Shown here piece after piece: positions 3,598-61,307 of a DNA stretch of 64,000 nt. Origin of the DNA: Eledone cirrhosa (taxonomy: Eukaryota); the NCBI GenBank assembly GCA_964016885.1, contig OZ024741.1, forward strand, positions 217,496,001 to 217,560,000. Direction: 5' to 3'. The notes beneath the pieces were generated by a model. That model saw nothing but the letters and a program-made list of their open reading frames with translations. It was not told the DNA's origin and did no database searches. Numbering within the stretch: position 1 is the stretch's first letter; each line of letters opens with the position of its first letter. The position numbers and the translations under genes were made by a program.

Positions 3598-4190
3598 TCT
3601 TTCCTAACGACATATATCTCCCTTACATTAATACTAGAGCTAAATAAATAAATAAATAAATAAAGGTATCATTGATACATCGTCCAACTACCTACTTTTC
3701 TCTATATATATCTATCTCTATCTATTTCCTCTCTCTATATATCTCTCTCTGTTTCTTTACATGAAGTTCTTCTCTTTATCTATCTTTCCATCTCTCTATT
3801 TTGTTGCATGCATTTCTTCTTTTTCTTCTTTTTCTTCATTTTCTTTCTTTCTTTCTTTCTTTCCTTCTTTCTTTCTTTCTTTTCTTTCTTTCTTTCTGTT
3901 TACAATTTTCTCACTGCCAAATCAACTTTTTCAAATACAAGTCGATGTTGAACGGTATGTCAAATCTATTTATCTATAAAACTGTCTATATTGTATTTTG
4001 TCTGAAGAAGGCATAACATATTGTTAATATGATATCCCTGAAATATATATAATGAAATAAATATGGTTTTATAAATATAGTTTCCATTTATTTAATATCG
4101 TAAATATACTCCAAATACTTGTTGAGTGCTTTTATATCAGTTATAAATATTTACTAGTTGTAACCCAACAATTTAAATATAACTTTCCAT
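3597..4190 (+). repeat. 5' (truncated) direct pseudo-LTR
   Basis: 594-bp near-identical match to 7411-8004; one substitution noticed (3838 vs 7652). Confidence 0.95.
3986..4066 (+). ncRNA. Type I hammerhead ribozyme (5' pLTR)
   Basis: Stem I CUAUAUUGUAUUUUGU (3986-4001) pairs with AUGAAAUAAAUAUGG (4052-4066), one bulge; CUGAAGA 4002-4008; stem II AGG/CCU enclosing CAUAUU-GUU-AAUAUG; GAAA 4040-4043; palindromic stem III UAUAUA; UA cleavage site ending 4051. Confidence 0.85.
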
Positions 4191-6943: not shown

Positions 6944-8004
6944 ATTAGTATTTTTTGTTTTTGTTTCTGATATTTTTATTAATATATTGAAATCTGTTCT
7001 CTATTTCTGCTTGATAGATAATCATGTAGAGTAAAGACAAGAATAGTATTGTTAAAATTAATATAGACTCTATATATATGTGTGTATATATACACATATA
7101 TGTATACTTAAATTTTTATAGCACAATGAGAATGTTCTCCGTGTGAAATAGGGGTTTGCAGAGTTGATCACGTAAATTCACATCGATGTTTGTAGTTATC
7201 ATATAAACATATGAGTTTTTTAAAACTAGACATAAGATCATTACTTTTCACACATTATAGATACGTGTCTCACTCAGGAATACTGATATTTACATTATAG
7301 TGTCTGGTTTTTATACGAACTAATACTTCTACATTAAAACATAGGGTTTTTGAATTATGCCTCGCCTATGTCTGGTTACTTTTCATTTTTCTCTCTATAT
7401 AACGGCTGGTTTCTTTCCTAACGACATATATCTCCCTTACATTAATACTAGAGCTAAATAAATAAATAAATAAATAAAGGTATCATTGATACATCGTCCA
7501 ACTACCTACTTTTCTCTATATATATCTATCTCTATCTATTTCCTCTCTCTATATATCTCTCTCTGTTTCTTTACATGAAGTTCTTCTCTTTATCTATCTT
7601 TCCATCTCTCTATTTTGTTGCATGCATTTCTTCTTTTTCTTCTTTTTCTTCGTTTTCTTTCTTTCTTTCTTTCTTTCCTTCTTTCTTTCTTTCTTTTCTT
7701 TCTTTCTTTCTGTTTACAATTTTCTCACTGCCAAATCAACTTTTTCAAATACAAGTCGATGTTGAACGGTATGTCAAATCTATTTATCTATAAAACTGTC
7801 TATATTGTATTTTGTCTGAAGAAGGCATAACATATTGTTAATATGATATCCCTGAAATATATATAATGAAATAAATATGGTTTTATAAATATAGTTTCCA
7901 TTTATTTAATATCGTAAATATACTCCAAATACTTGTTGAGTGCTTTTATATCAGTTATAAATATTTACTAGTTGTAACCCAACAATTTAAATATAACTTT
8001 CCAT
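6944..8004 (+). repeat. 3' pseudo-LTR, extending 89 nt beyond the end matched by the inverted copy
   Basis: 6944-7915 matches the inverted copy; 7411-8004 matches the 5' direct copy. Confidence 0.93.
7800..7880 (+). ncRNA. Type I hammerhead ribozyme (3' pLTR)
   Basis: Same sequence as 3986-4066; CUGAAGA 7816-7822; predicted cleavage after 7865. Confidence 0.85.
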
Positions 8005-12662: not shown

Positions 12663-13594
12663 GGCAATTGAAGAGAAAGATATAATTTCCCCTCAAGAAG
12701 GTCGAGATGTTGCTGCAGAGATTGGGGTCGCTTATTACGAAGTAAGCATTCTCACCGAGTTTGGAATTGAGGATGTTTTCTTAAATACAGTGCGAGCAGC
12801 TCTCAGTGACCGACGCAAGATGAAATTCTGGGACAGCCAGCTTCGAAAGCTGAAACCACCGATGATTCAACCTCCTATGGAACTTCCTCAACCTAGTTAT
12901 CCAAAAGTGACACTGCCATCAGTATCTTTATACAATGACCTCTGCTATCTACTGAGTGACCAAATCGAAGGAGACGTGGTTTTCGTAGCCAAAGAAAAAT
13001 GTATATATGCCCACAAAATTTGTTTAATGGTTACCAGTTCAGTATTTAAGGATCTTTTCCTAACAGACTTGAAAAGCCCTTCTTCAGAGCAGTCGAGTCA
13101 TGAAGTTTTCTCTGAAGATAGAGTGTCAGAAGATAGCGACAAAGACAGACTTATAGACAGTGACGGGATCTTACCAGAGAGCCCGGTGTCTGAGCATCTC
13201 GATTTTAATAACGTCATCGCTAACGAACAAAATGAATATGAGACAACAAAAACTTTCGTCCCCTCACACCCAGCATTTCACTCTGTCGAGATAAAACCTC
13301 CCAAGAGCCCGTTCCAGTCTAACCAATGCACTGTACAGTTAAACCCAGATATTACCCCACGGGCTTTCCAGTATATTCTAGAATACCTGTATACTGGAGT
13401 GGCCAAAGAACAGTTTGATATTTTCGATGAAGTCATCGTGGCTGCTGAGTTGCTACAACTCCCTGATCTTGTACTAACCATCAGGAACTTTCTCTCGAAA
13501 GAGGCTTACCTAAACCTAGAACTACGACGTAGATTCCATGTGGCACACTGTAGCAATCTGCAAGAACTGGCACTCAAGAGAGAAATAGCCACTG
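12663..13594 (+). CDS. RhoBTB: RhoBTB1/2-like exon: end of Rho GTPase domain, Pro-rich linker, split BTB1 with acidic insert
   Basis: EGRDVAAEIGVAYYEVS..FGIEDVFLNTVRAAL; KPPMIQPP; DVVF..IYAHKICL..SSVFKDLF ... AFQYILEYLYTG. Acceptor AG 12661-12662; donor GTAAGT at 13595, phase 1. Earlier exons lie before the window. Confidence 0.92.
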
Positions 13595-14579: not shown

Positions 14580-15431
14580 TCATCATCATCACCACTACCA
14601 CCATCATCATCATATTATGTCCAATTTCTATACTGGTATGGGTTGGATGAGTTAGCACAGTCCAAGACTAGATGGGTCAGAGAGACCTCATCTTACTCAT
14701 ATATTACATATTTCGGCATGGTTACTATAGTTGGATGCCCATCCTAGTGCCAACCACTTTGCAGAGTGTACTGGGTGCATTTTATAGTGACACCAGCACG
14801 ACCACTTTACATACTGCACTGGGTACATTTTATTGTGGCACCATCACCACCACCACCACTTTACAGAGTGTGCTTGGTGTATTTACTGTGGCAACAGCAC
14901 TACCATTTTATGGGATTACAGAGTGTACCGAGTGTATTTATCATGGCACCAACACTACCACTTTACAGAGTGTACTGTGTATATTTTATCATTGCATCTG
15001 CACTACCATGTTACAGAGTGTACTGGGTGTATTTTATCATAGCACCAACACTACCACTTTACAGAGTGTACCGAGTGTATTTTATCATAGCACCAACACT
15101 ACCACTTTACTGAGAGTACTGGGTGTATTTTATCATGGCACCAGTACTACCACTTTACTGAGTGTACTGGGTGTATTTTATCATGGCACCAGTACTACCA
15201 CTTTGCAGAGTGTACTGGGTCCATTTTATTAATACACCTGCACTATTACTTTATAGGGTATACTAAGTGTATTTTATTATTGCATCAACACTATCACTTT
15301 ACAGAGTGTACTGGGTGTATTATATCATGACACCAGTACTACCACTTTACAGAGTGTACTGGGTGTATTTTATCATGGCACCAGTACTACCACTTTACAG
15401 AGTGCACTGGGTGTATTTTATCATGGCACCA
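14580..15431 (-). repeat. SINE remnant (14580-14760) continuing into ~14 degenerate 48-bp units
   Basis: (CAT)n tail and GGATGCCC core followed by the repeated unit CACTTTACAGAGTGTACTGGGTGTATTTTATCATGGCACCAGTACTAC. Confidence 0.85.
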
Positions 15432-15856: not shown

Positions 15857-15975
15857 ATGTGACGTTCCAAGTGGATGATGGAATGGTCCGAGCCCACAAA
15901 CCTCTCTTAATGGCCCACTGTGAAGTGATGTATGCAATGTTTAGTGATGACTTTCTCGAGTCTTCCGCTAAAGTG
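15857..15975 (+). CDS. RhoBTB: RhoBTB exon: start of BTB2
   Basis: DVTFQVDDGMVRAHKPLLMAHCEVMYAMFSDDFLESSAKV; acceptor ATCCAG ending 15856; donor GTAACT at 15976; phases 1/0 fit the neighbouring exons. Confidence 0.92.
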
Positions 15976-24108: not shown

Positions 24109-24907
24109 ATATATATATAAGAATGAAGAATATGGCTGTATTCTGGAATCTTATACCAGTTTATTAATTATATATATATAATTATATTAGGTATGAATTG
24201 AAGTTGTAGCTACTGTATAGCAGGTACTAATTGAGTTGTTTGAGGCAATCACAAACAACTTGTTATCTAAACTATAATAAAGTAAGGAGTGCGGGATTGC
24301 GTACGGTTTATAGTTTTTTATCCCATTAGTAAAATAAGTTGGATTACTTTGAATAAATAATGAATGAATATTACATAATTTAGCTACTAAATTTCGTAGC
24401 TGTTGGTTAAATATATTTTATTGTTTATTTAAAGATTCACTTCTTTAAAATTTTCAGATGTGAACACTTCTGGTTAGCGATTGCTTAAATAAACATTCAT
24501 ATATTTCCGTCACTAATTTTCTCCTAATGCAGTTTATATATAATATCGTCTTTTTTTAACGTATCATGGATTATGTTACTGATTACATAAGACAGTGTAA
24601 CACAGTCTTCGTTCAATTTCTGTGTATATTGTCAATTATGATTTTATTTGATGTATCATATCTACATGCATATATACTTGCGTATAATAGCAATATACAC
24701 ACTACACATGCTAGCAGAAAACTACCCGAAGGGTGGTTTTTCTGCTAGCATGTGTAGTGTGGTTTTTCTGCTAGTATATATAATGAGTGTGAGAGGTTGA
24801 TGGATGTGAGAATGAGTACTTGCAAGAGAGAGAATGAGATTGCAAGAGAGAAAGAGAGAGGTAGTGAAACTTTACTTATGTTATATCTTTCCTCTCTCCT
24901 TTTCCAG

Positions 24908-25147
24908 ATTCCATTCCCAGGTATCTGTAAAGATGCCTTCAAGGCTCTCCAGGAATACCTGTACACAGGTGAATCACCATATATGTCTGGTGTAGACTGC
25001 ATGAACTTAATTGAAGTGGCCAATCGCCTATGTCTACCTCGGCTTGTTGCTTTTGCTGAGCAACACCTGGTCCAGGAACTTGGCAGACTGGAAGATGGCA
25101 ACGTTAACATGATGGAAGATGTGTTGACTATTCTAGAAACTGCACAG
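24908..25147 (+). CDS. RhoBTB: RhoBTB exon: rest of BTB2
   Basis: IPFPGICKDAFKALQEYLYTG..LIEVANRLCLPRLVAFAEQ..ILETAQ; acceptor TTTCCAG 24901-24907; donor GTGTGT at 25148; 240 nt, phase 0/0. Confidence 0.93.
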
Positions 25148-25350: not shown

Positions 25351-25899
25351 AATTATTACCTGTCACCTCTCATTAAACTGCACAGGTGTTTTATGACACT
25401 TTTAACTTCTGTTACACCTGTCACCTCTCATTAAACTACCTAGATGTATCCCATCACCTCACATTAAACTATGCAGGTGTTACAACCCTGTCTTCTAATA
25501 TCTCTAGAAACTCCACAGGTGTGTAACACTATTTATTCCATATTACCTCTTACCTGACATTAAACTATACAGGTGTAACTGTCATATTACCATATGTATG
25601 TATATCATCTATACAATTGTATTATGTCATCTGTCTGTCATCTACCTCTCATCTACTTGTCATCTACCTATCATCTATTTCTCATCTGTCTCTCACCTGT
25701 CTGACATCTACCTGTCATCTATCTCTTATCTGTTATGTGTCTATATTTCCAGTTACACAATGCAGTACACCTAGCAAAATGGTGCCTTCACTATCTCTCA
25801 TCTACATGTCATCACTCCCTCATCTACCTCTCATTTACCTGTCAGCTACCTCTCACCTGTCTGTCATCTGTCTCTCATCTACCTGTTATCTGTCCCTCA

Positions 25900-27030
25900 T
25901 CTACCTGTTATCTGTCTCTCATCTACATGTAATCACCCTCTCACCTGTCTGTCATCTGTCTCTCATCTACATGTAATCACCCTCTCATCTACCTGTCATC
26001 TGTCTCTCATCTACATGTAATCACCCTCTCATCTACCTGTCATCTGTCTCTCATCTACATGTAATCACCCTCTCATCTACCTGTCATCTGTCTCTCATCT
26101 ACATGTAATCACCCTCTCATCTACCTGTCATCTGTCTCTCATCTACATGTAATCACCCTCTCATCTACCTGTCATCTGTCTCTCATCTACATGTAATCAC
26201 CCTCTCATCTACCTGTCATCTGTCTCTCATCTACATGTAATCACCCTCTCATCTACCTGTTATCTGTCTCTCATCTACATGTAATCACCCTCTCATCTAC
26301 CTGTTATCTGTCTCTCATCTACATGTAATCACCCTCTCATCTACCTGTCATCTGTCTCTCATCTACATGTAATCACCCTCTCATCTACCTGTCATCTGTC
26401 TCTCATCTACATGTAATCACCCTCTCATCTACCTGTCATCTGTCTCTCATCTACATGTAATCACCCTCTCATCTACCTGTCATCTGTCTCTCATCTACAT
26501 GTAATCACCCTCTCATCTACCTGTCATCTGTCTCTCATCTACATGTAATCACCCTCTCATCTACCTGTCATCTGTCTCTCATCTACATGTAATCACCCTC
26601 TCATCTACCTGTCATCTGTCTCTCATCTACATGTAATCACCCTCTCATCTACCTGTCATCTGTCTCTCATCTACATGTAATCACCCTCTCATCTACCTGT
26701 CATCTGTCTCTCATCTACATGTAATCACCCTCTCATCTACCTGTCATCTGTCTCTCATCTACATGTAATCACCCTCTCATCTACATGTCATCACACTCTC
26801 ATCTACATGTAATCACCCTCTCATCTACCTGTCATCTGTCTCTCATCTACATGTAATCACCCTCTCATCTACCTGTCATCACACTCTCATCTACATGTAA
26901 TCACCCTCTCATCTACCTGTCATCTGTCTCTCATCTACATGTAATCACCCTCTCATCTACCTGTCATCTGTCTCTCATCTACATGTAATCACCCTCTCAT
27001 CTACATGTCATCACACTCTCATCTACATGT
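25900..27030. repeat. 44-bp minisatellite (4 x 11-bp subunits), ~25 copies, with degenerate 11-bp flanks
   Basis: Unit TCATCTACATG-TAATCACCCTC-TCATCTACCTG-TCATCTGTCTC; period checked at 25963 and 26007. Confidence 0.95.
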
Positions 27031-27387
27031 CATCTAACTCTCACCTGTCTGTCATGTCTTTCATCTGTATGACATCTGTTATCTGTCTATATTTCCAGCT
27101 ACACAATGCAGTACAGCTAGCAAAGTGGTGCCTTCACTATCTCTCACCTGTCTCTCACCTGCCTGTCATCTGAATGTCATCTGTAGTCTGACATCTGTTA
27201 TCTGTCTATATTTCCAGCTACACATTCTCTAAAACTTGCAAAGTGGTGCCTTCAGTTTCTCTCATCTATCTTTCACCTGCTTCTCACCTACCTATCATCT
27301 ATCTGTCACCTGCCTTTCATCTGGATGTCATCTGCCTGTCATCTGTATGTCATCTGTATGACATCTGTTATCTGTCTATATTTCCAG

Positions 27388-27536
27388 CTACACAATGCTG
27401 TACAACTAGCAAAGTGGTGCCTTCACTATCTTTGTGTTCATTTTCTGGATATATTTCCTCAATATGTGAAACATTATAAAACCCTCAGTCTGGAGAACCA
27501 GTTGTTTATTGATAAACACAGATGGCCTCCTGAATG
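27388..27536 (+). CDS. RhoBTB: RhoBTB exon: C-terminal (BACK-like) region
   Basis: LHNAVQLAKWCLHYLCVHF..ENQLFIDKHRWPPEW; acceptor TTTCCAG 27381-27387; donor GTAAGT at 27537, phase 2. Confidence 0.93.
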
Positions 27537-27584
27537 GTAAGTTAGAAACATTCAACAACTTTCACTGGCTCTATCTCTGTCTCT

Positions 27585-27917: not shown

Positions 27918-28550
27918 GGAGGGTTTAGCCCTAAATACTTAACCCTTGCTAAACAGTACTAGAAGTTTGCTTTAGCAGGATTTTAACTAAGCATTTGTCT
28001 AGCTCTGTACAGACTCTGCCAATCTGCAAGAGGACACATATAACCACGCCTTGGATAACCCTCATTGGCTATGATACCACCTCTGTGCTAAGCTATAGGG
28101 AAAGGTTTTTCTCTGAATGCTTAGCACTTGCTAAACAGTTCTAGAAGTTGGCTTAAGCAGGATTTGAACTACAAATACTGCTAAACATATATCTGATGCT
28201 CTACAGAGTTTTCCAATTCACTGCCAATCATAATTACTTTTCTATTGTTTTAGTTTTTTTGGCTTTTTCTTTCCCTAGTTATGTAAAAGAGATTGAATTA
28301 TTTCAAATAGTGCTAGATGTTGGCCTTAGTGGGATTTGAACTCAGAACATAAAGAGCCAGGCCAAATACTGCTAAGCATTTGTCTGGCACTCTACAAGCT
28401 CTGCTAATGGGCAAGGGGACAAATTTACGGGAAAGGTTTAGCCCTGAATTCTTAGCCCTTGCTAAATAGTGCTAGATAATGGCCTTGGTGGGATTTGAAC
28501 TCAGAACGTAAAGAGCGAGGGCAAATACTGCCTGATTCTCTACAGACCTT
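27918..28550. repeat. Degenerate tandem repeat, 3-4 copies of a SINE-containing unit
   Basis: TTGCTAAACAGT.CTAGA...GGATTTGAACT recurs near 27947, 28128, 28306 (partial) and 28459. Confidence 0.65.
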
Positions 28551-28568: not shown

Positions 28569-28790
28569 ATCATCATCATCATCATCATCATCATTGTTTA
28601 ATGTCTATTTTCCATGCTAGCATGGGTTAGATGAGTTGTCCCATTACAGGAAAGATGGGTCGGGTGACCGTATCTCACTCATATAGGACTGTTTCTGGCT
28701 AGATTTCTATGGCTGGATGCCCTTCCTAATGCCAACCATATTTATAGTGTGGGCTGGGTGCTTTTTGTCGTGACACCTACACCACCACTT
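28569..28790 (-). mobile_element. SINE at the start of the satellite
   Basis: (CAT)n tail, CCATGCTAGCATGGGTT and GGCTGGATGCCCTTCCTAATGCCAACCA running without a break into the 48-bp units. Confidence 0.88.
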
Positions 28791-31700
28791 TACAGGGTGG
28801 GCTGGGTGCTTTTTGTCGTGACACCTACACCACCACTTTACAGTGTGGGCTGGGTGCTTTTTGTGTTTTGCCACCTACACGACCACTTTATAGAGTGGGC
28901 TGGGTGCTTTTTGTCATCGCACCTACACGACCACTTTACAGTGTAGACTGGGTGCTTTTTGTTGTGACTCCTACATGACGAATTTACAGTGTAGGCTGGG
29001 TGCTTTTTGTCTTGGCACCAACATGACCACTTTATAGTGTTGGCTGGGTGCTTTTTGTTGGGACACCTACATGACCACTTTACAATGTGGGCTGGGTGTT
29101 TTTTATCGTGGCACCTACACGACTGCTTTACAGTGAGGACTGGGTGCTTTTTGTTGTAACTCCTGCATGACTGCTTTACAGTGTGGGATGGGTGCTTTTT
29201 GCCACCTACACGACCATTTTACAGTGTGGGCTTGGTGCTTTTTGTCGTGCCACCTACACGACCATTTTACAGTGTGGGCTTGGAGCTTTTTGTTATGACA
29301 CCTACACGACCACTTTACAGTGTGGGCTGGGTGCTTTTTATCGTGGTGCCTACACGACCACTTTCCAGTGTTGGCTGGGTGCTTTTTCTCGTGGCACCTA
29401 CATGATCACTTTGCAGTGTGGGCTGGGTGCTTTTTGTTGGGACTCTGACATGACCACTTTGCAGTGTAGGCTGTGTGCTTTTTGTTGTGACACCTACGTG
29501 ACCACTTTACAGTGTAGGCTGAGAGCTTTTTGTCATGACACCTACACGACCACTTTACAGTGTGGGCTGACTGCTTTTTATTGTGGCGCCTACATGACCA
29601 CTTTCCAGTGTTGGCTGGGTGCTTCTTGTTGTGACTCCTGCATTACCACTTTACAGTGTAGGCTGGGTGCTTTTTGTTTGGGAGACCTACATGACCACTT
29701 TACAGTGTGGGCTAGGTGCTTTTTGTCGTGGCGCCTACACAACGACTTTACAGTGTGAGCTGGGTGCTTTTTGTTGGGACTCCTACATGACCACCTTACA
29801 GTGTTGGCTGGGTGCTTTTTGTCATGACACCAACACGACCATTTTATTGTGTGGGTTGTATGTTTTTTGTCATGAGACCAACACGACCACTTTACAGTGT
29901 GGGCTGTCTGCTTTTTGTTGTGACCTACGCGACCACTTTACAGTGTGGGCTGGGTGCTTTTTATCATGACACCTACACGACCATTTTACAGTGTTGGCTG
30001 AGTGCTTTTTAGTCATGTCACCAACATGACCACTTTATAGTGTGGGCTGGGTGCTTTTTGTTTGGACTCCTACATGACCACTGTACAGTGTGGGCTGGGT
30101 GCTTTTTGTCGTGACACCTACACAACAACTTTACAGTGTGGGCTGTGTGATTTTTGTTGTGACTCCTATATGACCACTTTGCAGTGTGGGCTGTGTACAT
30201 TTTTTTCGTGGCACCTACACAACCATTTTACAGTGTGGGCTGGCTGCTTTTTGTTTTTACTCCTGCACAACCACTTTACAGTGTGGGCTGGGTGCTTTCT
30301 GTTGGGAATCCTACATGACCACTTTACAGTGTTGGCTGGGTGCTTTTTGTCGTGACACCTACACAACAACTTTACAGTGTGGACTGTGTGCTTTTTGTTG
30401 TGACTCCTATATGACCACTTTGCAGTGTGGGCTGCGTACATTTTTTCGTGGCACATACACGAGCATTTTACAGTGTGGGCTGGCTGCTTTTTGTTGTGAC
30501 ACCTACATGACCACTTTACAGTGTGGGCTGGGGGCTTTTTCTTTAGGAGACCTACATGACCACTTGACAGTGTGGGCTAGGTGCTTTTTGTCGTGGCGCC
30601 TACACGACGACTTTACAGTGTGGGCTGGGTGCTTTTAGTTGTGACACCTACATGACCACTTTACAGTGTGGGCTGGGTGCTTTTGTTCATGTGACCAACA
30701 TGACGACTTTATAGTGTGAGCTGGGTGTTTTTTGTTCGGACTCCTACATGACCACTTTACAGTGTGGGCTGGGTGCTTTTTGTCTTCGCACCTACGCGAG
30801 CACTTTACAGTGTGGGCTGGGTACTTCTTGTTGTGACTCCTGCATTACCACTTTACAGTGTAGGCTGGGTGCTTTTTGTTTGTGAGACCTACATGACCAC
30901 TTTACAGTGTGTGCTAGGTGCTTTTTGTCGTGGCGCCTACACGACGACTTTACAGTGTGGGCTGGGTGCTTTTTGTTGGGACTCCTACATGACCACCTTA
31001 CAGTGTTGGCTGGGTGCTTTTTGTTGTAACTCCTACCTGATTAATTTATAGTCTTTCCTAGTGCCAACTACATTTACAGTGAGTGTTGGGTACTTTTTGT
31101 CATGACACCTACACTACCGCTTTACAGTGTGGACTAGGTGCTTTTTATTGTGGCACCTACACGAGCATTTTACGGTGTGGGCTGGGTGCTTTTTGTCGTG
31201 ACTCCTACATGACCACTTTACAGTGTGGGCTAGGTGCTTTTAGTTGTGACACCTACATGACCACTTTACAGTGTGGGCTGGGTGCTTTTTCTTTAAGAGA
31301 CCTACATGACCACTTGACAGTGTGGGCTAGGTGCTTTTTGTCGTGGCGCCTACTCGACGACTTTACAGTGTGGGCTGAGTGCTTTTTGTTGGGACTCCTA
31401 CATGACCACTTTACAGTGTTGGCTGGGTGCTTTTGGTCATGTGACCAACATGACGACTTTATAGTGTGAGCTGGGTGTTTTTTGTTCGGACTCCTACATG
31501 ACCACTTTACAGTGTGGGCTGGGTGCTTTTTTTTGTGACTCCTATATGACCACTTTGCAGTGTGGGTTGTGTACATTTTTTCGTGGTACCTAGACAACCA
31601 TTTTACAGTGTGGGCTGGCTGCTTTTTGTTTTTACTCCTGCACAACCACTTTACAGTGTGGGCTGGGTGCTTTCTGTTGGGACTCCTACATTACCACTTT

Positions 31701-34700
31701 ACAGTGGTGGCTGGGTGCTTTTTGTTGTGACACCTACACAACATCTTTACAGTGTGGTCTGTGTGCTTTTTGTTGTGACACCTACATGACCACTTTACAG
31801 TGTGTGCTGGGTACTTTTTGTTGTGACTCCTACATGACCAATTTACAGTGTCGGCTATGTGCTTTTTGTCGTGGCACCTACCTGACCACTTTCCAGTGTG
31901 GGCTAGGTGCTTTTTGTTTAGCAGACCAACATGACTTCTTGAAAGTGTGGGCTGGGTGCTTTTTGTTGGGACTCCCACATCACCACTTTACAGTGTGAGC
32001 TATGTTATTTTTGTCATGACACCTACAGGACAACTTTACAGTGTGGGCTGTATGCTTTTTGTCGTGCCAACTACATGACCATTTTACAGTGTGGGCTGCG
32101 TGCTTTTTATTGTCTCACCTACACGACCACTCTACAGTGTGGGCTGGGTGCTTTTTGTTGTGACTCCTACACGACCATTTTACAGTGTGGGCTGGGTGCT
32201 TTTTGTGGAGTGTCCTACACGACCACTTTATAGTGTGGGCTGAGTGCTTTTTGTTGTGACTGCTACATGACCACTTTACAGTGTGCGCTGGGTGCCTTTT
32301 GTCGTGACACCTACACGACAACTTTACAGTGTGGGCTGTGTGCTTTTTGTTGTGACGCCTACATAACCACTTTACAGGGTGGGCTGGATACTTTTTGTTG
32401 TGACTCCTACACGACCACTTTACAGTGTGGGCTGGGTACTTTTTTTCGTGGCACCTATACGACCATTTTACAGTGTGCGCTGCCTGCTTTTTGTTGGGAC
32501 TCCTACATGACCACTTAACAGTGTGGGTTGTGTGCTTTTTGTTGGGACTCCTACATGACAACTTTACAGTGTGGGCTGGGAGCTTTTTGTCGTGACACTT
32601 ACACGAAAACTTTACAGTGTGGGCTGGGTGATTTTTTGTTGTGACTCCTACATGACCACTTTGCAGTGTGGGCTGAGTACTTTTTCTCGTAGCACCTACA
32701 CGACCACTTTACAGTGTGGGCTGGGTACATTTTTTTCATGGTACCTACACGATTATTTTGCAGTGTGGGCTGGTTGCTTTTTGTTGTGACTCCTACACGA
32801 CCACTATACAGTGTGAGCTGGGTGCTTATTTTTGGACTCCTACATGAAAACTTTACAGTGTGGGCTGGGTGATTTTGTTGGACTCCTATATGACCACTTT
32901 GCAGTGTGGGCTGTGTACATTTTTTGGTGGCACCTACACGAGCATTTTACGGTGTGGGCTGGCTGCTTTTTGCTGTGACACCTACATGACCACTTTATAG
33001 TGTGGGCTGGGTGCTTTTTGTCATGGCGCCTACACGACGACTTTACAGTGTGGGCTGAGTGCTTTTTGTTGGGACTCCTACATGACCACTTTACAGTGTT
33101 GGCTGGGTGCTTTTTGTCGTGACACCTACACGACAACATTACAGTTTGGTCTGTGTGCTTTTTGTTGTGACGCCTACATAACCACTTTACAGGGTGGGCT
33201 GGGTACTTTTGGTTGTGACTCCTACACGACCACTTTACAGTGTGGGCTGGGTACTTTTTTTCGTGGCACCTATCCGACCATTTTACAGTGTGCGCTGCAT
33301 GCTTTTTGTTGGGACTCCTACATGACCACTTTACAGTGTTGGCTGGGTGCTTTTGGTCATGTGACCAACATGACGACTTTATAGTGTGAGCTGGGTGTTT
33401 TTTGTTCGGACTCCTACATGACCACTTTACAGTGTCGGCTGGGTGTTTTTTTTTTGTGACTCCTATATGACCACTTTGCAGTGTGGGTTGTGTACATTTT
33501 TTCGTCGTACCTAGACAACCATTTTACAGTGTGGGCTGGCTGCTTTTTGTTTTTACTCCTGCACAACCACTTTACAGTGTGGGCTGGGTGCTTTCTGTTG
33601 TGACACCTACATGACCACTTTACAGTGTGTGCTGGGTACTTTTTGTTGTGACTCCTACATGACCACTTTACAGTGTGGGCTAGGTGCTTTTTGTTTAGCA
33701 GACCAACATGACTACTTGAAAGTGTGGGCTGGGTGCTTTTTGTTGGGACTCCCACATCACCACTTTACAGTGTGAGCTATGTGCTTTTTGTCATGTCACC
33801 TACAGGACAACTTTACAGTGTGGGCTGTGTGCTTTTTGTTGTGACTCCTATATGACTACTTTGCAGTGTGGGCTGCGTACATTGTTTCGTGGCACCTACA
33901 CAAGCATTTTACAGTGTGGGCTGGCTGCTTTTTGTTGTGACACCTACACGACCACTTTACAGTGTGGGTTAGGTGCCTTTAGTTGTGGCACCTACACGAC
34001 CACTTTACAGTGTGGGCTGGGTGCTTTTTGTTGGGACTCCTACATGACCACTTTACAGTGTGGTCTATGGGCTTTTTGTTGTGACACCTACATAACCATT
34101 TTATTGTGTGGGCTGTGTGCTTTTTCTCATGACACCAACACAACCACTTTACAGTGTGGGCTGTGTGCTTTTTCTCGTGACACCTACACGACAACATTAC
34201 AGTTTGGTCTGTGTGCTTTTTGTTGTGACCCCTACATAACCACTTTACAGTGTGGGCTGGGTACTTTTTTTCATGGCACCTATATGACCATTTTACAGTG
34301 TGTGCTGCATGCTTTTTGTTGGGACTCCTACATGAGCACTTTACAGTGTTGGCTTGGTGCTTTTGGTCATGTGAGCAACATGACCACTTTATAGTGTGAG
34401 CTGGGTGCTTTTTGTTCGGACACCTACATGACCACTTTACAGTGTGGGCTAGGTGCTTTTAGTTGTGACTCCTATATGACCACTTTGCAGTGTGGGCTGT
34501 GTATATTTTTTCGTGGCACCTACACGAGCATTTTACAGTGTGGGCTGGGGCTGCTTTTTGTTGTGACACTTACACGACAATTTTACAGTGTGGGCTGGGT
34601 GCTTTTTGTTGTGACTCCTACATGACCAATTTATAGTGTGGGCTGGGTGATTTTTGTCATGACACCAATATGACCACTTTATAGTGTGGGCTGGGTGCTT

Positions 34701-37700
34701 TTTGTTGAGACTCCTACATCACCACTATACAATGTGTTGGCTGGGTGCTCTTTGTCGTCCCCCTACCTGATCACTTTACAGTTTGGGCTGGGTGCTTTTT
34801 GACGTGACTCCTGTATCACCACTTTACAGTGTAGGCTGGGTGCTTTTCGTTTAGCAGACCAACATAACTACTTTACAGTGTGGGCTGTGTGCTTTTTGTT
34901 GTAACACCTACATGACCACTTTATAGTGTGGGGCTGAGTGCTTTTTATCGTGGCACCTACACGGCCACTTTACAATGTGGGCTGGGTACATTTTTTCGTG
35001 GCACCTAGGTGCTTTTTGTCGTGGCGCCTACACGACGACTTTACAGTGTGGGCTGGGTGCTTTTTGATGGGACTCCTACATGTCCACTTTACAGTGTTGG
35101 CTGGGTGCTTTTTGTCGTGACATCTACACGACAACATTACAGTTTGGTCTGTGTGCTTTTTGTTGTGATGCCTATATGACCAAAGTATAGTGTGGGCTGG
35201 GTGCTTTTTGTCATGACACCAATACGACCACTTTATAGTGTGGGCTGGGTGATTTTTGTTGTGACACCTACATGACCACTTTATAGTGTGGACTGGGTGC
35301 TTTTGTTGGGACTCCTACATGAACACTTTACAGTGTGGGCTGGGTGATTTTTGTTGTGACACCTACATGACCACTTTACAGTGGGGCTGAGTGCTTTTTC
35401 TCATTGCACCAACACGACCACTTTACAGTGTGGGTTGGGTACATTCGTGGCATCTACACGATTATTTTACAGTGTGGGGTGGGTGCTTTTTGTTGTGACT
35501 CCTACACGACCACTTTACAGTGTGGGCTGGGTGCTTTTTGTTGTGACTCCTGGATGACCACTTTACAGTGTGGGCTGGGTGCTTTTTGTTGGACTCCTAC
35601 ATGACCACTTTACAGTATGGGCTGGTTGCTTTTTGTTGTTACTCGTACACTACCACTTTAGAGTGTGGGCCGGGTGCTTTTTGTTGGGACTCCCTCATGA
35701 CCACTTTACAGTGTTGGCTGGTCGCTTTTGGTCATGTCACCAACATGACCACTTTACAGTGTGGGATGGGTGCTTTTTGTTGTGACACCTACACGACAAC
35801 ATTACAGTTTGGTCTGTGTGCTTTTTGTTGTGACGCCTACATAACCACTTTACAGGGTGGGCTGGGTACTTTTGGTTGTGACTCCTACACGACCACTTTA
35901 CAGTGTGGGCTGGGTACTTTTTTTCGTGGCACCTATCCGACCATTTTACAGTGTGCGCTGCATGCTTTTTGTTGGGACTCCTACATGACCACTTTACAGT
36001 GTTGGCTGGGTGCTTTTGGTCATGTGACCAACATGACGACTTTATAGTGTGAGCTGGGTGTTTTTTGTTCGGACTCCTACATGACCACTTTACAGTGTCG
36101 GCTGGGTGTTTTTTTTTTGTGACTCCTATATGACCACTTTGCAGTGTGGGTTGTGTACATTTTTTCGTCGTACCTAGACAACCATTTTACAGTGTGGGCT
36201 GGCTGCTTTTTGTTTTTACTCCTGCACAACCACTTTACAGTGTGGGCTGGGTGCTTTCTGTTGTGACACCTACATGACCACTTTACAGTGTGTGCTGGGT
36301 ACTTTTTGTTGTGACTCCTACATGACCACTTTACAGTGTGGGCTAGGTGCTTTTTGTTTAGCAGACCAACATGACTACTTGAAAGTGTGGGCTGGGTGCT
36401 TTTTGTTGGGACTCCCACATCACCACTTTACAGTGTGAGCTATGTGCTTTTTGTCATGTCACCTACAGGACAACTTTACAGTGTGGGCTGTGTGCTTTTT
36501 GTTGTGACTCCTATATGACTACTTTGCAGTGTGGGCTGCGTACATTGTTTCGTGGCACCTACACAAGCATTTTACAGTGTGGGCTGGCTGCTTTTTGTTG
36601 TGACACCTACACGACCACTTTACAGTGTGGGTTAGGTGCCTTTAGTTGTGGCACCTACACGACCACTTTACAGTGTGGGCTGGGTGCTTTTTGTTGGGAC
36701 TCCTACATGACCACTTTACAGTGTGGTCTATGGGCTTTTTGTTGTGACACCTACATAACCATTTTATTGTGTGGGCTGTGTGCTTTTTCTCATGACACCA
36801 ACACAACCACTTTACAGTGTGGGCTGTGTGCTTTTTCTCGTGACACCTACACGACAACATTACAGTTTGGTCTGTGTGCTTTTTGTTGTGACCCCTACAT
36901 AACCACTTTACAGTGTGGGCTGGGTACTTTTTTTCATGGCACCTATATGACCATTTTACAGTGTGTGCTGCATGCTTTTTGTTGGGACTCCTACATGAGC
37001 ACTTTACAGTGTTGGCTTGGTGCTTTTGGTCATGTGAGCAACATGACCACTTTATAGTGTGAGCTGGGTGCTTTTTGTTCGGACACCTACATGACCACTT
37101 TACAGTGTGGGCTAGGTGCTTTTAGTTGTGACTCCTATATGACCACTTTGCAGTGTGGGCTGTGTATATTTTTTCGTGGCACCTACACGAGCATTTTACA
37201 GTGTGGGCTGGGGCTGCTTTTTGTTGTGACACTTACACGACAATTTTACAGTGTGGGCTGGGTGCTTTTTGTTGTGACTCCTACATGACCAATTTATAGT
37301 GTGGGCTGGGTGATTTTTGTCATGACACCAATATGACCACTTTATAGTGTGGGCTGGGTGCTTTTTGTTGAGACTCCTACATCACCACTATACAATGTGT
37401 TGGCTGGGTGCTCTTTGTCGTCCCCCTACCTGATCACTTTACAGTTTGGGCTGGGTGCTTTTTGACGTGACTCCTGTATCACCACTTTACAGTGTAGGCT
37501 GGGTGCTTTTCGTTTAGCAGACCAACATAACTACTTTACAGTGTGGGCTGTGTGCTTTTTGTTGTAACACCTACATGACCACTTTATAGTGTGGGGCTGA
37601 GTGCTTTTTATCGTGGCACCTACACGGCCACTTTACAATGTGGGCTGGGTACATTTTTTCGTGGCACCTAGGTGCTTTTTGTCGTGGCGCCTACACGACG

Positions 37701-40700
37701 ACTTTACAGTGTGGGCTGGGTGCTTTTTGATGGGACTCCTACATGTCCACTTTACAGTGTTGGCTGGGTGCTTTTTGTCGTGACATCTACACGACAACAT
37801 TACAGTTTGGTCTGTGTGCTTTTTGTTGTGATGCCTATATGACCAAAGTATAGTGTGGGCTGGGTGCTTTTTGTCATGACACCAATACGACCACTTTATA
37901 GTGTGGGCTGGGTGATTTTTGTTGTGACACCTACATGACCACTTTATAGTGTGGACTGGGTGCTTTTGTTGGGACTCCTACATGAACACTTTACAGTGTG
38001 GGCTGGGTGATTTTTGTTGTGACACCTACATGACCACTTTACAGTGGGGCTGAGTGCTTTTTCTCATTGCACCAACACGACCACTTTACAGTGTGGGTTG
38101 GGTACATTCGTGGCATCTACACGATTATTTTACAGTGTGGGGTGGGTGCTTTTTGTTGTGACTCCTACACGACCACTTTACAGTGTGGGCTGGGTGCTTT
38201 TTGTTGTGACTCCTGGATGACCACTTTACAGTGTGGGCTGGGTGCTTTTTGTTGGACTCCTACATGACCACTTTACAGTATGGGCTGGTTGCTTTTTGTT
38301 GTTACTCGTACACTACCACTTTAGAGTGTGGGCCGGGTGCTTTTTGTTGGGACTCCCTCATGACCACTTTACAGTGTTGGCTGGTCGCTTTTGGTCATGT
38401 CACCAACATGACCACTTTACAGTGTGGGATGGGTGCTTTTTGTTGTGACACCTACACGACAACATTACAGTTTGGTCTGTGTGCTTTTTGTTGTGACGCC
38501 TACATAACCACTTTACAGGGTGGGCTGGGTACTTTTGGTTGTGACTCCTACACGACCACTTTACAGTGTGGGCTGGGTACTTTTTTTCGTGGCACCTATC
38601 CGACCATTTTACAGTGTGCGCTGCATGCTTTTTGTCGTGACACCTACACGACAACATTACAGTTTGGTCTGCGTTCTTTTTGTTGTGACGCCTGCAGTGT
38701 GGGCTGGGTACTTTTGGTTGTGACTCCTACACGACCACTTTACAGTGTGGGCTGGGTACTTTTTTTCGTGGCACCTATCCGACCATTTTACAGTGTGCGC
38801 TGCATGCTTTTTGTTGGGACTCCTACATGACCACTTTACAGTGTTGGCTGGGTGCTTTTGGTCATGTGACCAACATGACGACTTTATAGTGTGAGCTGGG
38901 TGTTTTTTGTTCGGACTCCTACATGACCACTTTACAGTGTCGGCTGGGTGTTTTTTTTTTGTGACTCCTATATGACCACTTTGCAGTGTGGGTTGTGTAC
39001 ATTTTTTCGTGGTACCTAGACAACCATTTTACAGTGTGGGCTGGCTGCTTTTTGTTTTTACTCCTGCACAACCACTTTACAGTGTGGGCTGGGTGCTTTC
39101 TGTTGGGACTCCTACATTACCACTTTACAGTGGTGGCTGGGTGCTTTTTGTTGTGACACCTACACAACATCTTTACAGTGTGGTCTGTGTGCTTTTTGTT
39201 GTGACACCTACATGACCACTTTACAGTGTGTGCTGGGTACTTTTTGTTGTGACTCCTACATGACCAATTTACAGTGTCGGCTATGTGCTTTTTGTCGTGG
39301 CACCTACCTGACCACTTTCCAGTGTGGGCTAGGTGCTTTTTGTTTAGCAGACCAACATGACTTCTTGAAAGTGTGGGCTGGGTGCTTTTTGTTGGGACTC
39401 CCACATCACCACTTTACAGTGTGAGCTATGTTATTTTTGTCATGACACCTACAGGACAACTTTACAGTGTGGGCTGTGTGCTTTTTGTCGTGACACCTAC
39501 ATGACCACTTTACAGTGTGGGCTGTATGCTTTTTGTCGTGCCAACTACATGACCATTTTACAGTGTGGGCTGCGTGCTTTTTATTGTCTCACCTACACGA
39601 CCACTCTACAGTGTGGGCTGGGTGCTTTTTGTTGTGACTCCTACACGACCATTTTACAGTGTGGGCTGGGTGCTTTTTGTGGAGTGTCCTACACGACCAC
39701 TTTATAGTGTGGGCTGAGTGCTTTTTGTTGTGACTGCTACATGACCACTTTACAGTGTGCGCTGGGTGCTTTTTGTCGTGACACCTACACGACAACTTTA
39801 CAGTGTGGGCTGTGTGCTTTTTGTTGTGACGCCTACATAACCACTTTACAGGGTGGGCTGGATACTTTTTGTTGTGACTCCTACACGACCACTTTACAGT
39901 GTGGGCTGGGTACTTTTTTTCGTGGCACCTATACGACCATTTTACAGTGTGCGCTGCCTGCTTTTTGTTGGGACTCCTACATGACCACTTAACAGTGTGG
40001 GTTGTGTGCTTTTTGTTGGGACTCCTACATGACAACTTTACAGTGTGGGCTGGGAGCTTTTTGTCGTGACACTTACACGAAAACTTTACAGTGTGGGCTG
40101 GGTGATTTTTTGTTGTGACTCCTACATGACCACTTTGCAGTATGGGCTGAGTACTTTTTCTCGTAGCACCTACACGACCACTTTACAGTGTGGGCTGGGT
40201 ACATTTTTTTCATGGTACCTACACGATTATTTTGCAGTGTGGGCTGGTTGCTTTTTGTTGTGACTCCTACACGACCACTATACAGTGTGAGCTGGGTGCT
40301 TATTTTTGGACTCCTACATGAAAACTTTACAGTGTGGGCTGGGTGATTTTGTTGGACTCCTATATGACCACTTTGCAGTGTGGGCTGTGTACATTTTTTG
40401 GTGGCACCTACACGAGCATTTTACGGTGTGGGCTGGCTGCTTTTTGCTGTGACACCTACATGACCACTTTACAGTGTGGGCTAGGTGCTTTTAGTTGTGA
40501 CACCTACATGACCACTTTATAGTGTGGGCTGGGTGCTTTTTGTCATGGCGCCTACACGACGACTTTACAGTGTGGGCTGAGTGCTTTTTGTTGGGACTCC
40601 TACATGACCACTTTACAGTGTTGGCTGGGTGCTTTTTGTCGTGACACCTACACGACAACATTACAGTTTGGTCTGTGTGCTTTTTGTTGTGACGCCTACA

Positions 40701-43700
40701 TAACCACTTTACAGGGTGGGCTGGGTACTTTTGGTTGTGACTCCTACACGACCACTTTACAGTGTGGGCTGGGTACTTTTTTTCGTGGCACCTATCCGAC
40801 CATTTTACAGTGTGCGCTGCATGCTTTTTGTCGTGACACCTACACGACAACATTACAGTTTGGTCTGCGTTCTTTTTGTTGTGACGCCTGCAGTGTGGGC
40901 TGGGTACTTTTGGTTGTGACTCCTACACGACCACTTTACAGTGTGGGCTGGGTACTTTTTTTCGTGGCACCTATCCGACCATTTTACAGTGTGCGCTGCA
41001 TGCTTTTTGTTGGGACTCCTACATGACCACTTTACAGTGTTGGCTGGGTGCTTTTGGTCATGTGACCAACATGACGACTTTATAGTGTGAGCTGGGTGTT
41101 TTTTGTTCGGACTCCTACATGACCACTTTACAGTGTCGGCTGGGTGTTTTTTTTTTGTGACTCCTATATGACCACTTTGCAGTGTGGGTTGTGTACATTT
41201 TTTCGTGGTACCTAGACAACCATTTTACAGTGTGGGCTGGCTGCTTTTTGTTTTTACTCCTGCACAACCACTTTACAGTGTGGGCTGGGTGCTTTCTGTT
41301 GTGACACCTACATGACCACTTTACAGTGTGTGCTGGGTACTTTTTGTTGTGACTCCTACATGACCACTTTACAGTGTGGGCTAGGTGCTTTTTGTTTAGC
41401 AGACCAACATGACTACTTGAAAGTGTGGGCTGGGTGCTTTTTGTTGGGACTCCCACATCACCACTTTACAGTGTGAGCTATGTGCTTTTTGTCATGTCAC
41501 CTACAGGACAACTTTACAGTGTGGGCTGTGTGCTTTTTGTTGTGACTCCTATATGACTACTTTGCAGTGTGGGCTGCGTACATTGTTTCGTGGCACCTAC
41601 ACAAGCATTTTACAGTGTGGGCTGGCTGCTTTTTGTTGTGACACCTACACGACCACTTTACAGTGTGGGTTAGGTGCCTTTAGTTGTGGCACCTACACGA
41701 CCACTTTACAGTGTGGGCTGGGTGCTTTTTGTTGGGACTCCTACATGACCACTTTACAGTGTGGTCTATGGGCTTTTTGTTGTGACACCTACATAACCAT
41801 TTTATTGTGTGGGCTGTGTGCTTTTTCTCATGACACCAACACAACCACTTTACAGTGTGGGCTGTGTGCTTTTTCTCGTGACACCTACACGACAACATTA
41901 CAGTTTGGTCTGTGTGCTTTTTGTTGTGACCCCTGCATCACCACTTTACAGTGTAGGCTGGGTGCTTTTCGTTTAACAGACCAACATAACTACTTTACAG
42001 TGTGGGCTGTGTGCTTTTTGTTGTAACACCTACATGACCACTTTATAGTGTGGGGCTGAGTGCTTTTTATCGTGGCACCTACACGGCCACTTTACAATGT
42101 GGGCTGGGTACATTTTTTCGTGGCACCTAGGTGCTTTTTGTCGTGGCGCCTACACGACGACTTTACAGTGTGGGCTGGGTGCTTTTTGATGGGACTCCTA
42201 CATGTCCACTTTACAGTGTTGGCTGGGTGCTTTTTGTCGTGACATCTACACGACAACATTACAGTTTGGTCTGTGTGCTTTTTGTTGTGATGCCTATATG
42301 ACCAAAGTATAGTGTGGGCTGGGTGCTTTTTGTCATGACACCAATACGACCACTTTATAGTGTGGGCTGGGTGATTTTTGTTGTGACACCTACATGACCA
42401 CTTTATAGTGTGGACTGGGTGCTTTTGTTGGGACTCCTACATGAACACTTTACAGTGTGGGCTGGGTGATTTTTGTTGTGACACCTACATGACCACTTTA
42501 CAGTGGGGCTGAGTGCTTTTTCTCATTGCACCAACACGACCACTTTACAGTGTGGGTTGGGTACATTCGTGGCATCTACACGATTATTTTACAGTGTGGG
42601 GTGGGTGCTTTTTGTTGTGACTCCTACACGACCACTTTACAGTGTGGGCTGGGTGCTTTTTTTTGTGACTCCTGGATGACCACTTTACAGTGTGGGCTGG
42701 GTGCTTTTTGTTGGACTCCTACATGACCACTTTACAGTATGGGCTGGTTGCTTTTTGTTGTTACTCGTACACTACCACTTTAGAGTGTGGGCCGGGTGCT
42801 TTTTGTTGGGACTCCCTCATGACCACTTTACAGTGTTGGCTGGTCGCTTTTGGTCATGTCACCAACATGACCACTTTACAGTGTGGGATGGGTGCTTTTT
42901 GTTGTGACACCTACATGACAACTTTACAGTGTGGGCTGTGTGATTTTTGTTGTGACACCTATATGACTACTTTGCAGTGTGTGCTGTGTATATTTTTTTA
43001 GGCGGCTATTTTACAGTGTGGGCTGGCTGGTTTTTGTTGTGACTCCTACACGACCACTTTACTGTGTGGGCTGGGTGCTTTTTGTTGGGACTCCTACATG
43101 ACTACTTTACAGTGTGGGCTGTGTGCTGGGTGTTTTTGTTGGGACTCCTACATGACCATTTTACAGTGTGGGCTGGGTGCTTTTCGTCATGGTGCTTTTT
43201 GTTGTGACTCCTACACGACCGCTTTACAGTGTGGGCTGGGTGCTTTTTGTTGTGACTCCTACACGACTACTTTACAGTGCGGGCTGGGTGCTGTTAGTCA
43301 TGGTGCCTATACGACCACTTTACGACGGGTGCTTTTTGTTGGGACTCCTACACGACCACTTTACAGTGTTGGCCGGGTGCTTTTTTCATGACACCAACAA
43401 GAGCACTTTATAGTGTGGGGTGGGTGCTTTTTGTTGGGACTCCTACATGAACACCTTACAGTGTGGACTGGGTGCTTTTTGTCGTGACACCTACACGAAA
43501 ACTTTACAGTGTGGGTTGGGTACATTTTTTCGTGGCACCTACACGATTATTTTACAGTGTGGGGTGTGTGCTTTTTGTTGTGACTCCTACATAACCACTT
43601 TACAGTGGGGCTGAGTGCTTTTTCTCGTGGCACCTACACGACCACTTTACAGTGTGGGTTGGGTACACTTTTTCGTGGCACCTACACGATTATTTTACAG

Positions 43701-45050
43701 TGTGGGGTGTGTGCTTTTTGTTGTGACTCCTACATAACCACTTTACAGCGTGGGCTGGGTGCTTTTTGTCGTCCCACCTACACGACCACTTTCCAGTGTG
43801 CTCTGGGTACATTTTTTCGTGGCACCTACACGACCATTTTACAGTGTGGGCTGGCTGCTTTTTGTTGTGACTCCTACACGACCACTTTACATTGTGGGCT
43901 GGGTGTTTTTGTTGTGACTCCTGCATGACCACTTTACAGTGTAGGCTGGGTGCTTTTTGTTTAGGAGACCTACATGACCACTTTGCAGTGTGGGCTCTGC
44001 TTTTTGTCATGACACCTACATGACTACTTTACAGTGTGGGCTGGGTGTTTTTTCTTGTGTCTCCTACACGACCACTTTACAGTATGAGCTAGGTGCTTTT
44101 AGTCGTGGTGCCTACATGACCAGTTCACAGTGTGGGCTGGGTACTTTTTGTTTGGATTCCTACATGACCACTTTACAGTGTTGGCCGGGTGCTTTTTGTT
44201 ATGACACCAACATGACCATTTTACAGTGTGGGCTGTGTGCTTTTTGTTATGTCACCAACATGACCATTTTACAGTTTGGGCTGGGTGGTTTTTGTTGTGA
44301 CTCCTACATGACCACTTTGGAGTGTGGGCTGTGTGCTTTTTGTTGTGACTGCTACATGACCACTTTACAGTGTGGGCGGGGTGCTTTTTGCTTGGACTCC
44401 TACATGACCACTTTACAGCGTGGGCTGGGTGCTTTTCATTGCGGCTCCTACACAACCACTTTACAGTGTGCTCTGGGTACATTTTTTCGTGGCACCTACA
44501 CGCCCATTTTACAGTGTGGGCTGGCTGCTTTTTGTTGTGACACCTACACGACCACTTTACAGTGTTGGCCGGGTGCTTTTTGTCATGCCACCAACATGAC
44601 CACTTTATAGTGTGGGCTGGGTGCTTTTTGTTCGGACTCCTACATGACCACTTTACAGTGTGGGCTGGGTGCTTTTTGTTGTGACTACTACATTACCACT
44701 TTACAGTGTTGGCCTGGTGCTTTTTTTTATGACTCCTACATGACCACTTTGGAGTGTGGGCTGTGTGCTTTTTGTGGTGACTACTACATGACCCCTTTAC
44801 AGTGTGGGCTGGGTGCTTTTCGTTGCGGCTCCTACACGACCATTTTACAGTGTGGGCTGCGTGCTTTTTGTTGTGACTACTACATTACCAATTTACAGTG
44901 TTGACTGGATGCTTTTTGTTGTGACTGCTACATGACCACTTTACAGTGTTGGCCGGGTACCTTTTGTCCTGGTACCTACACGACTACTTTACAGTGTGGG
45001 CTGGCTGCTTTTTGTTGTGACACCTACACAACCACTTTACAGTGTGGACT
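28736..45050. repeat. 48-bp satellite, ~340 units, with 2663-bp and ~7.4-kb higher-order duplications
   Basis: Consensus CACTTTACAGTGTGGGCTGGGTGCTTTTTGTTGTGACACCTACATGAC; identical ORF-track peptides recur at offsets 2663 and 7426-7522. Confidence 0.97.
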
Positions 45051-45093
45051 GCCAATAATAATTGATTTTCCATTGGTTTTGTTTTTTTCCTAG

Positions 45094-45271
45094 GTATGTA
45101 AAAGAGATGCAGTTATTTCAAAGTTTAATGAACAGTCCTTCAAAGAAGCAACAGCGTCAGAAACAACAACAGTTCAGCCGATGGGAACGTTGTACAAACA
45201 GCTGCCTATGTTTCAGTCGACGGCATAGTCACAGTAGCATGTCCGACCCCTTGGAATTACCTAATAGTTGA
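45094..45271 (+). CDS. RhoBTB: RhoBTB terminal coding exon
   Basis: Acceptor TTTTTTTCCTAG ending 45093; phase 2 completes HRWPPEW-YVKE, matching the RhoBTB HRWPPxWYxKE motif; stop TGA 45269-45271. The five exons sum to an in-frame length. Confidence 0.88.
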
Positions 45272-59830: not shown

Positions 59831-59988
59831 GCAGGAGTAGTGAAGCAAGAGGGAGGGCGAGGTTGGTGGTTCACCCCTGGCGACACTTTTATGGGGGCCT
59901 AATTTGGGGTCTGCTGTAGGCTACAAGTGTTCTTTTAACGCTGCAGCATAATATTATAATTGTCTACAGACTAATTAATATATATATA

Positions 59989-60866: not shown

Positions 60867-61307
60867 ATACTTCAAGAGTTATATATTTATATATATTAAG
60901 AGCAATATGTATTTTTTGTGGGGGGCCTGCAGGTGGCAAACTGAAGGGCTGCTCTGGGCGGCACATACTAGCTACGTCACTGAGTGCGGCTGTCAGATAA
61001 AGAACACCCAGTCCACTCTGTTGAGTGATAGTGTGGGTGCCATGATAAAGAGCACCCAGTTCACTCTGTCAAATGATAGTGGTGGTGCCATGGTAAAGAG
61101 CACACAGTCTACTCTATCAAGTGATAGTGGTGGTGCCATGTTAAAACACTCCAATAACCCCTGTGAAGTGGTTGCAATTAAGAAAGGCCACCAGCAGTAA
61201 CAATCTTGTGTGAAAGCAGTGTATCAGTGAGACACAGTCGTCTGCCCTCTCTAGCCTCAGAACATGATAGCCTGTCTAACCCATGAAGCAAGGACAATAG
61301 ACATAAA

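Follow-up and report, generated by a model that had tools for sequence, protein, structure and literature searches.

Intronic copies of splice boundaries in an octopod RhoBTB gene, likely functionless products of local tandem duplication

Why would a gene hold, inside its own intron, several near-identical copies of an acceptor and of the exon start that follows it, and are these copies in use? The question is raised by a RhoBTB gene of Eledone cirrhosa, studied in a 64,000-nt stretch of contig OZ024741.1 (forward-strand positions 217,496,001 to 217,560,000; hereafter, the window) of a 3.0-Gb assembly. The initial annotation had reported three echoes of one acceptor, differing from the exon mostly at synonymous sites. 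In our analysis, these echoes are intronic copies of the exon-7 acceptor and of the first 44 bases of the exon, which likely derive from local tandem duplication and likely have no function, as in the boundary duplications known as “mirages”.

Echoes of three RhoBTB boundaries

The name RhoBTB is based on similarity to, and exon mapping of, an Octopus bimaculoides protein (P0003), which maps exon by exon with 84–95% identity (86% for exon 24908–25147). P0003 spans eight coding exons, of which five are inside the window and three lie 37–40 kb upstream of it. A Pfam search gave a BTB match below threshold only, and a search of the PDB gave no significant match. All 14 RhoBTB coding boundaries were tested within 25 kb, and three have echoes (acceptor 7, donor 6 and acceptor 8). 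The features concerned, all on the + strand, are as follows.

12663–13594, 15857–15975, 24908–25147, 27388–27536 and 45094–45271, +: RhoBTB coding exons in the window (P0003 mapping)
24908–25147, +: coding exon 6, second BTB domain, 80 codons; donor used in a spliced contig
25503–25527, +: echo of the exon-6 donor (15–16 exon nt and 9 intron nt, 24/25 identical, GT kept, nonsynonymous GCA>CCA; alignment)
25622–25796, +: echo unit E1, in which the end of the intron, made of the 11-bp repeat, and the acceptor precede the first 44 nt of exon 7 (these from 25753); identity with 27257–27431 is 79%
25820–27066, +: 44-bp tandem array between E1 and E2, 28.4 copies, 95% matches, built on an 11-bp motif (repeat detection)
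27041–27142, +: echo unit E2, whose exon part starts at 27099; its intron part matches the real acceptor exactly over the last 38 nt, and there are two synonymous differences (alignment and DNA contigs)
27155–27260, +: echo unit E3, whose exon part starts at 27218; the 29 nt of intron that precede it are the same as at the real acceptor (alignment and DNA contigs)
27388–27536, +: working exon 7, coding, 149 nt, and final copy in the array (mapping and spliced contig)
28220–28307, +: echo of the last-exon acceptor, exon part 28279–28307; three nonsynonymous and one synonymous change (alignment)
28741–45051, +: 48-bp satellite array, 16.3 kb, between the last-acceptor echo and the working last acceptor (repeat detection)
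45094–45271, +: working last coding exon, ending at the stop codon (mapping and spliced contig)

The layout first described for exon 7 holds: the real exon starts at 27388, an intact TTTCCAG precedes each of the three echo starts (25753, 27099 and 27218), and in-frame stops are found at 25930 and 27171. E3, described as frameshifted, has a 1-nt deletion in our site table and reaches a stop at 27230, in codon 5. Similarity to the exon ceases at exon base 44 in all three echoes, where repeat DNA begins; the initial annotation had placed this passage after codon 15. The duplicated unit, of about 175 nt, consists of the 11-bp-repeat end of the intron, the acceptor and 44 exon nt; E2, E3 and the real copy are spaced by 119 and 170 nt (tandem-repeat period 118), and E1 is displaced by 1346 nt. 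Exon bases 35–44, as read from the sequence, resemble the 11-bp motif of the intron, and the duplication breakpoint likely sits in this imperfect microhomology. This shared unit structure and the common breakpoint at exon base 44 support the origin by local tandem duplication that had been suggested. Indeed, any tandem duplication across an acceptor gives such a layout, with partial copies upstream and a last copy that continues to the donor. A whole-genome search with 27340–27540, in which simple repeats were skipped, returned four matches, the exon and its three echoes. E2, E3 and the exon have a perfect 36-nt block in common, whose sites are too few for a test of concerted evolution.

The echo of the exon-6 donor has weaker 36-nt relatives at 25354, 25412, 25445 and 25541; together, positions 25354–25576 hold this echo and five degenerate 36-nt units of one family, several of which end, as does the exon-6 donor, in CAG/GTGT. 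The last-acceptor echo lies 16.8 kb upstream of the working acceptor (28220–28307 versus 45048–45122). The sequence that follows it resembles 27951–28269 up to about 28575, and homology to the last acceptor resumes at 45048 with a short overlap, which fits a duplication whose downstream copy would later have been split by a 16.5-kb repeat insertion. The working last acceptor has about 45 nt of non-satellite intron upstream and no more.

Tandem repeats account for 42% of the 264 kb around the gene, and for 15% in 30 myosin exon loci, a figure that is not like for like as these loci hug exons. Other repeats of the window include related 48-bp arrays on both strands, with 3 to more than 300 copies (14753–15431, 28741–45051, 59241–59831 and 60996–61145), a perfect inverted repeat of 24 nt around a 16-nt spacer, close upstream of exon 6 (24698–24761), and two segments of intron 3, 3814 nt apart, with identical tandem-repeat signatures (3744–3897 and 7558–7711), which suggest a recent local duplication or an assembly repeat.

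Such repeat density could make the echoes an artefact of assembly, but this explanation is hardly credible. The copies differ from one another, and in DNA contigs from three runs of one sample, the units at 27099 and 27218 are present as unique sequence. In the same runs, a 36-mer common to three copies has about three times the reference depth (21/35/24 versus about 7/11/7.5), and a 34-mer common to two copies about twice. E2 and E3 are therefore not assembly artefacts, and the copy number of E2, E3 and the real exon in this sample fits the assembly. The tested stretch covered these three copies; E1, at 25753, lies outside it and has the most distinct intron part. The DNA runs differ from the assembly at 27147 (three of three runs) and at 27248, a G/A variant inside E3 (two of three), so the array carries variation.

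Boundary echoes in other genes and in other animals

Local copies of exon boundaries were surveyed in 72 exon matches to Myosin_head and in 99 to Kinesin; the original 107 Kinesin rows had included eight that were dropped (four long uninterrupted matches, one overlapping inverted copy and three on contig C1636). Flanking DNA, up to 2.5 kb per side, was available for 152 of the 171 rows, and the 19 rows without it were dropped. The boundaries in these kinesin and myosin genes are predicted splice sites, placed by an unvalidated in-house score that accepted 137 acceptors and 136 donors. Local copies that span the boundary were found at six of the 273: at the same kinesin acceptor in four paralogous rows, at one myosin donor and, as a marginal match not counted as an echo, at C5 (E 0.002, AT-rich). 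Boundary echoes thus occur in two gene families beyond RhoBTB. By comparison, 213 of 877 intron points are locally duplicated, or 104 of 763 outside short-period arrays. A second survey method found the RhoBTB acceptor echo and missed the RhoBTB donor echo, so these rates are floors; in addition, echoes farther than 2.5 kb, such as that at 28220, fall outside both surveys. A first pass over 30 myosin loci with 1.5-kb flanks gave no true boundary echo, two apparent matches being due to wrongly placed boundaries. Overall, echoes of boundaries are found repeatedly, but duplications within introns are several-fold more frequent, which is what one would expect were most boundary echoes harmful.

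The kinesin acceptor is echoed in units of about 120 nt, with one, two and four echoes in the three gene copies examined. In one paralogue, a single unit of four has the exon's base and three have the echo's, which suggests exchange between units. The near-identical kinesin copies are at C22:18819156, C18:5898170 and C1636:259143 and 373150, and some may be haplotigs. The myosin donor echo (C18:36959210) is a copy, 95 nt downstream, of 66 exon nt and the start of the intron, with five nonsynonymous changes, one synonymous change and a 9-nt deletion. Another kinesin-like segment, C17:43959144–43960489, has stops and an inverted local copy (86–100% identity) and looks like a rearranged pseudogene.

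A different kind of local duplication is found at C27:17978500–17982610, where a myosin heavy-chain motor exon is present three times; every copy keeps an intact GTAAGT donor, and the differences among the copies are mostly synonymous. From their open frames and intact donors, they are probable alternative exons. Like the echoes, they are local exon duplications, but each copy reaches its own donor, is open over the 29 codons compared and differs by 10–15 synonymous versus 1–3 nonsynonymous codons per pair. The RhoBTB echoes are partial and run into stops; none has the whole exon, its own donor or an open frame, and taken together their divergence is not dominated by synonymous changes.

The RhoBTB echoes match a kind of structure already described, the mirage duplications of amphioxus intron–exon boundaries. 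As far as the accessible part of that report goes, these are tandem duplications of an intron 3′ end and an exon 5′ part, in units of 150–160 bp and 3–6 copies, 81–100% identical, many with AG/GT signals, and RT-PCR suggests normal splicing (PMC3087553); excerpts of a second report add PGBD5 and troponin C (PMC3902484). The likeness extends to the composition and size of the unit (BflGb6, 150–160 bp; RhoBTB, 119–175 nt), the small number of copies, the retention of splice signals and the occurrence of both acceptor and donor types (PMC3087553, in part). In Eledone as well, direct repeat units span an exon–intron boundary and sit in the adjacent intron, the units are minisatellite-like and in tandem (10–160 bp in the published cases, from the excerpts), all three acceptor echoes keep TTTCCAG and the donor echo keeps GT. 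In contrast to the amphioxus cases, as presented in the same excerpts, the host is a mollusc, the units are built on an 11-bp intronic repeat and are separated by expanded satellites (1.25 kb and 16 kb), and three boundaries of one gene are affected. Amphioxus mirages vary in length between haplotypes or somatically, whereas the RhoBTB locus is known from the assembly and one DNA sample. On the donor side, a 37-bp VNTR spans the exon 7 donor in intron 7 of human F7 and was tested with minigenes (PMC1557585, in part). This boundary-spanning repeat, with near-identical and normally silent splice sites, parallels the donor echo at 25503; being a regular VNTR on the donor side, it differs from the RhoBTB acceptor echoes. 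No report of a cephalopod mirage was found in the open-access literature searched.

Substitutions between echoes and working exons

The initial annotation had read the differences between echoes and exon, seven of eight of them scored as synonymous, as a possible sign of past or present translation or of stepwise exon replacement by tandem duplication. The codon differences that it listed are all present as letters, but the description as mostly synonymous does not stand as worded, the count being inflated and E3 omitted. The breakpoint had been entered twice: at codon 15, what looks like CTT>CTC marks where repeat DNA begins and is no substitution. GCT>GCA, entered twice as well, is a single change common to the echoes at 25753 and 27099. 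Accordingly, of three synonymous differences ascribed to the 27099 echo, two are true substitutions, both synonymous, and the third is the breakpoint. In the site table, E1 alone has two synonymous changes and Gln>His, and E2 has no private change and no nonsynonymous one. Two synonymous sites set E1 and E2 apart from E3 and the exon, and E3 alone has five nonsynonymous changes, one synonymous change and the 1-nt deletion. Counted as independent events over the four copies, 5/11 changes are synonymous (5S/6N), with 3S/6N on the terminal branches of the echoes.

For this segment of exon 7, 21–29% of changes are expected to be synonymous under neutrality, and more if synonymous drift of the working exon is allowed. 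Under the null with such drift, the original 7/8 would give p 0.004–0.017. The four synonymous changes among five independent events in E1, E2 and the real exon give p 0.06–0.13 with exon drift and 0.009–0.026 under echo-only neutrality; for the 5/11 of all four copies, the values are 0.34–0.59 and 0.07–0.18. Hence, a residual synonymous lean remains under echo-only neutrality if E3 is ignored. When five echo segments are pooled (hand-scored from alignments), 9/27 changes are synonymous (9S/18N), and 4 synonymous versus 12 nonsynonymous are left without the RhoBTB acceptor. The pooled expectation is 21–30% for neutral echoes and 35–46% with exon drift, so that 9/27 is within the neutral range (p 0.10–0.41 and 0.65–0.94, respectively), the echo counts being small and mostly unpolarised. 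As a contrast set, the myosin heavy-chain exon copies have 22/25 synonymous changes (22S/3N, from two pairwise comparisons sharing one copy; Fisher p 7e-5 versus the echoes).

With independent counts of 5/11 and 9/27, both within the neutral range, the bias gives no support to translation. Translation of the echoes, now or in the past, into truncated isoforms kept by purifying selection is very improbable, even though the 15 residues encoded by E2 are those of the exon and E1 departs from them at a single residue. The counts collapse once made independent, the frame of E3 ends at codon 5, the exon's donor is copied in none of the echoes, and no transcript for E2 or E3 was found among the contigs of one run. 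Moreover, the Gln>His of E1 is derived, since orthologues have Gln.

The caveat that the working exon may itself have changed proved justified. The last-exon echo has the Glu of the three aligned orthologues and the working exon has Gln; the working exon therefore contributes to echo–exon differences. This observation also favours a second explanation, stepwise exon replacement or allele exchange, in which each echo would once have been the working 5′ end of the exon, or that of another allele, with the differences then filtered by selection. The two synonymous sites that separate E1 and E2 from E3 and the exon point the same way, and so does the exchange suggested by the kinesin paralogue. 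On the other hand, the argument draws on two unpolarised sites, and the high divergence of E3 conflicts with E3 being the youngest copy. Three metagenome-scan loci considered as orthologues for polarising the changes, with 41–46% protein identity, were too distant. We regard replacement or exchange as having somewhat less than an even chance; it is a variant of the relic explanation and concerns the history of the echoes, not their current function.

Splicing and origin of the echoes

Run X4 is not on record as RNA and was treated as transcript-derived because it has a contig spliced across two introns. In this 2314-nt contig, the end of exon 6 precedes the piece 27385–27539, and the start of the last exon follows it. 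Both joins, 25147>27388 and 27536>45094, are canonical and use the real donors and acceptors. The expectation that the spliceosome bypasses near-identical acceptors is thus borne out by one spliced contig that uses 27388, with E1 outside the test. X4 depth over 27040–27381, which holds E2 and E3, is zero, in one assembled run of depth about 9 whose contigs lose rare forms. The region tested covered 551 nt, E1 and the donor echoes lying outside it, and NMD targets would be depleted. The contig shows the canonical path, and is weak evidence in that rare or NMD-cleared forms are compatible with it.

Acceptor choice by exon definition and NMD of mis-spliced RNA belong to general metazoan splicing. 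The echoes could have arisen as follows. A slip or an unequal crossover at the imperfect microhomology between exon bases 35–44 and the 11-bp repeat would have duplicated about 175 nt. The last copy alone continuing to the donor at 27536, it would have remained the exon and left the protein unchanged. Further unequal exchange would have added units, and the 11-bp motif would have expanded into the 44-bp array. Exon definition would prefer the acceptor 149 nt from the donor over those at 319, 438 and 1784 nt, and mis-spliced RNA with a premature stop would be cleared by NMD. Finally, the working exon (or the donor allele) would differ only at tolerated sites while the echoes decay everywhere, so that echo–exon differences would lean synonymous. 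In the accessible text on Rogers-type intron gain, a redundant duplicated segment is likewise spliced out with the protein unchanged (Hellsten et al., PMC3265369; Rogers 1989, cited in PMC3087553), but here no new intron is formed and an existing one grows (PMC3265369).

The common breakpoint, the unit structure, the canonical joins and the decay of E3 and of the other echoes all speak for relics. The other boundary echoes of RhoBTB, myosin and kinesin decay through nonsynonymous changes and deletions. Against relics, the intron part is unchanged from that of the real acceptor over 38 nt in E2 and 29 nt in E3, and at −30 E3 has a CTGAC branch-like motif better than that of the real acceptor. 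In addition, E2 lacks nonsynonymous changes, and E1, E2 and the real exon taken alone give 4/5 synonymous. A plain clock does not explain the pattern of E3, which agrees with the working exon at two sites while its 44 exon nt carry seven changes and the adjoining 29 intron nt carry none. Gene conversion across the acceptor could account for it, as could a clustered mutation or selection against a rival acceptor; within 264 kb, on both strands, no better template for the cluster of changes was found than the exon itself.

E2 and E3 might instead be minor alternative acceptors that lengthen exon 7 up to a premature stop and tune the RhoBTB level through NMD. The intact, near-identical acceptors, the motif of E3 and the position of the stops, 27171 and 27230, a long way before the last junction, agree with this proposal, which we nevertheless consider unlikely. 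X4 has no contig on E2 or E3 (a weak argument), the synonymous bias brings no support as an NMD switch needs no codon conservation, and the similar amphioxus and human F7 structures stay silent in the available portions of these reports (PMC3087553, PMC1557585). There is likewise little reason to expect that E2 and E3 are decoys, used at low, regulated levels to send RhoBTB RNA to NMD, with selection having kept their splice signals and eroded the exon part of E3. If they were, mirages would provide octopus with new gene-dose switches and offer natural tests of spliceosome choice among identical acceptors.

Taken as relics of local tandem duplication, the RhoBTB echoes extend mirage-type boundary duplications to an octopod. 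The survey provides a first rough rate, about 1–2% of sampled boundaries compared with about 14% of intron points. Such a difference agrees with selection acting against most duplications that span a boundary. The echoes also illustrate a pitfall, as the comparison of an echo with its working exon leans synonymous without the echo ever being translated. The RhoBTB locus is, moreover, a ready minigene test of acceptor choice. Lastly, the echoes suggest how octopus introns may have grown: they would mark former acceptor positions, with an intron 6 of about 0.6 kb and an intron 7 of about 0.74 kb, after which repeats would have pushed the working exon up to 17 kb away.
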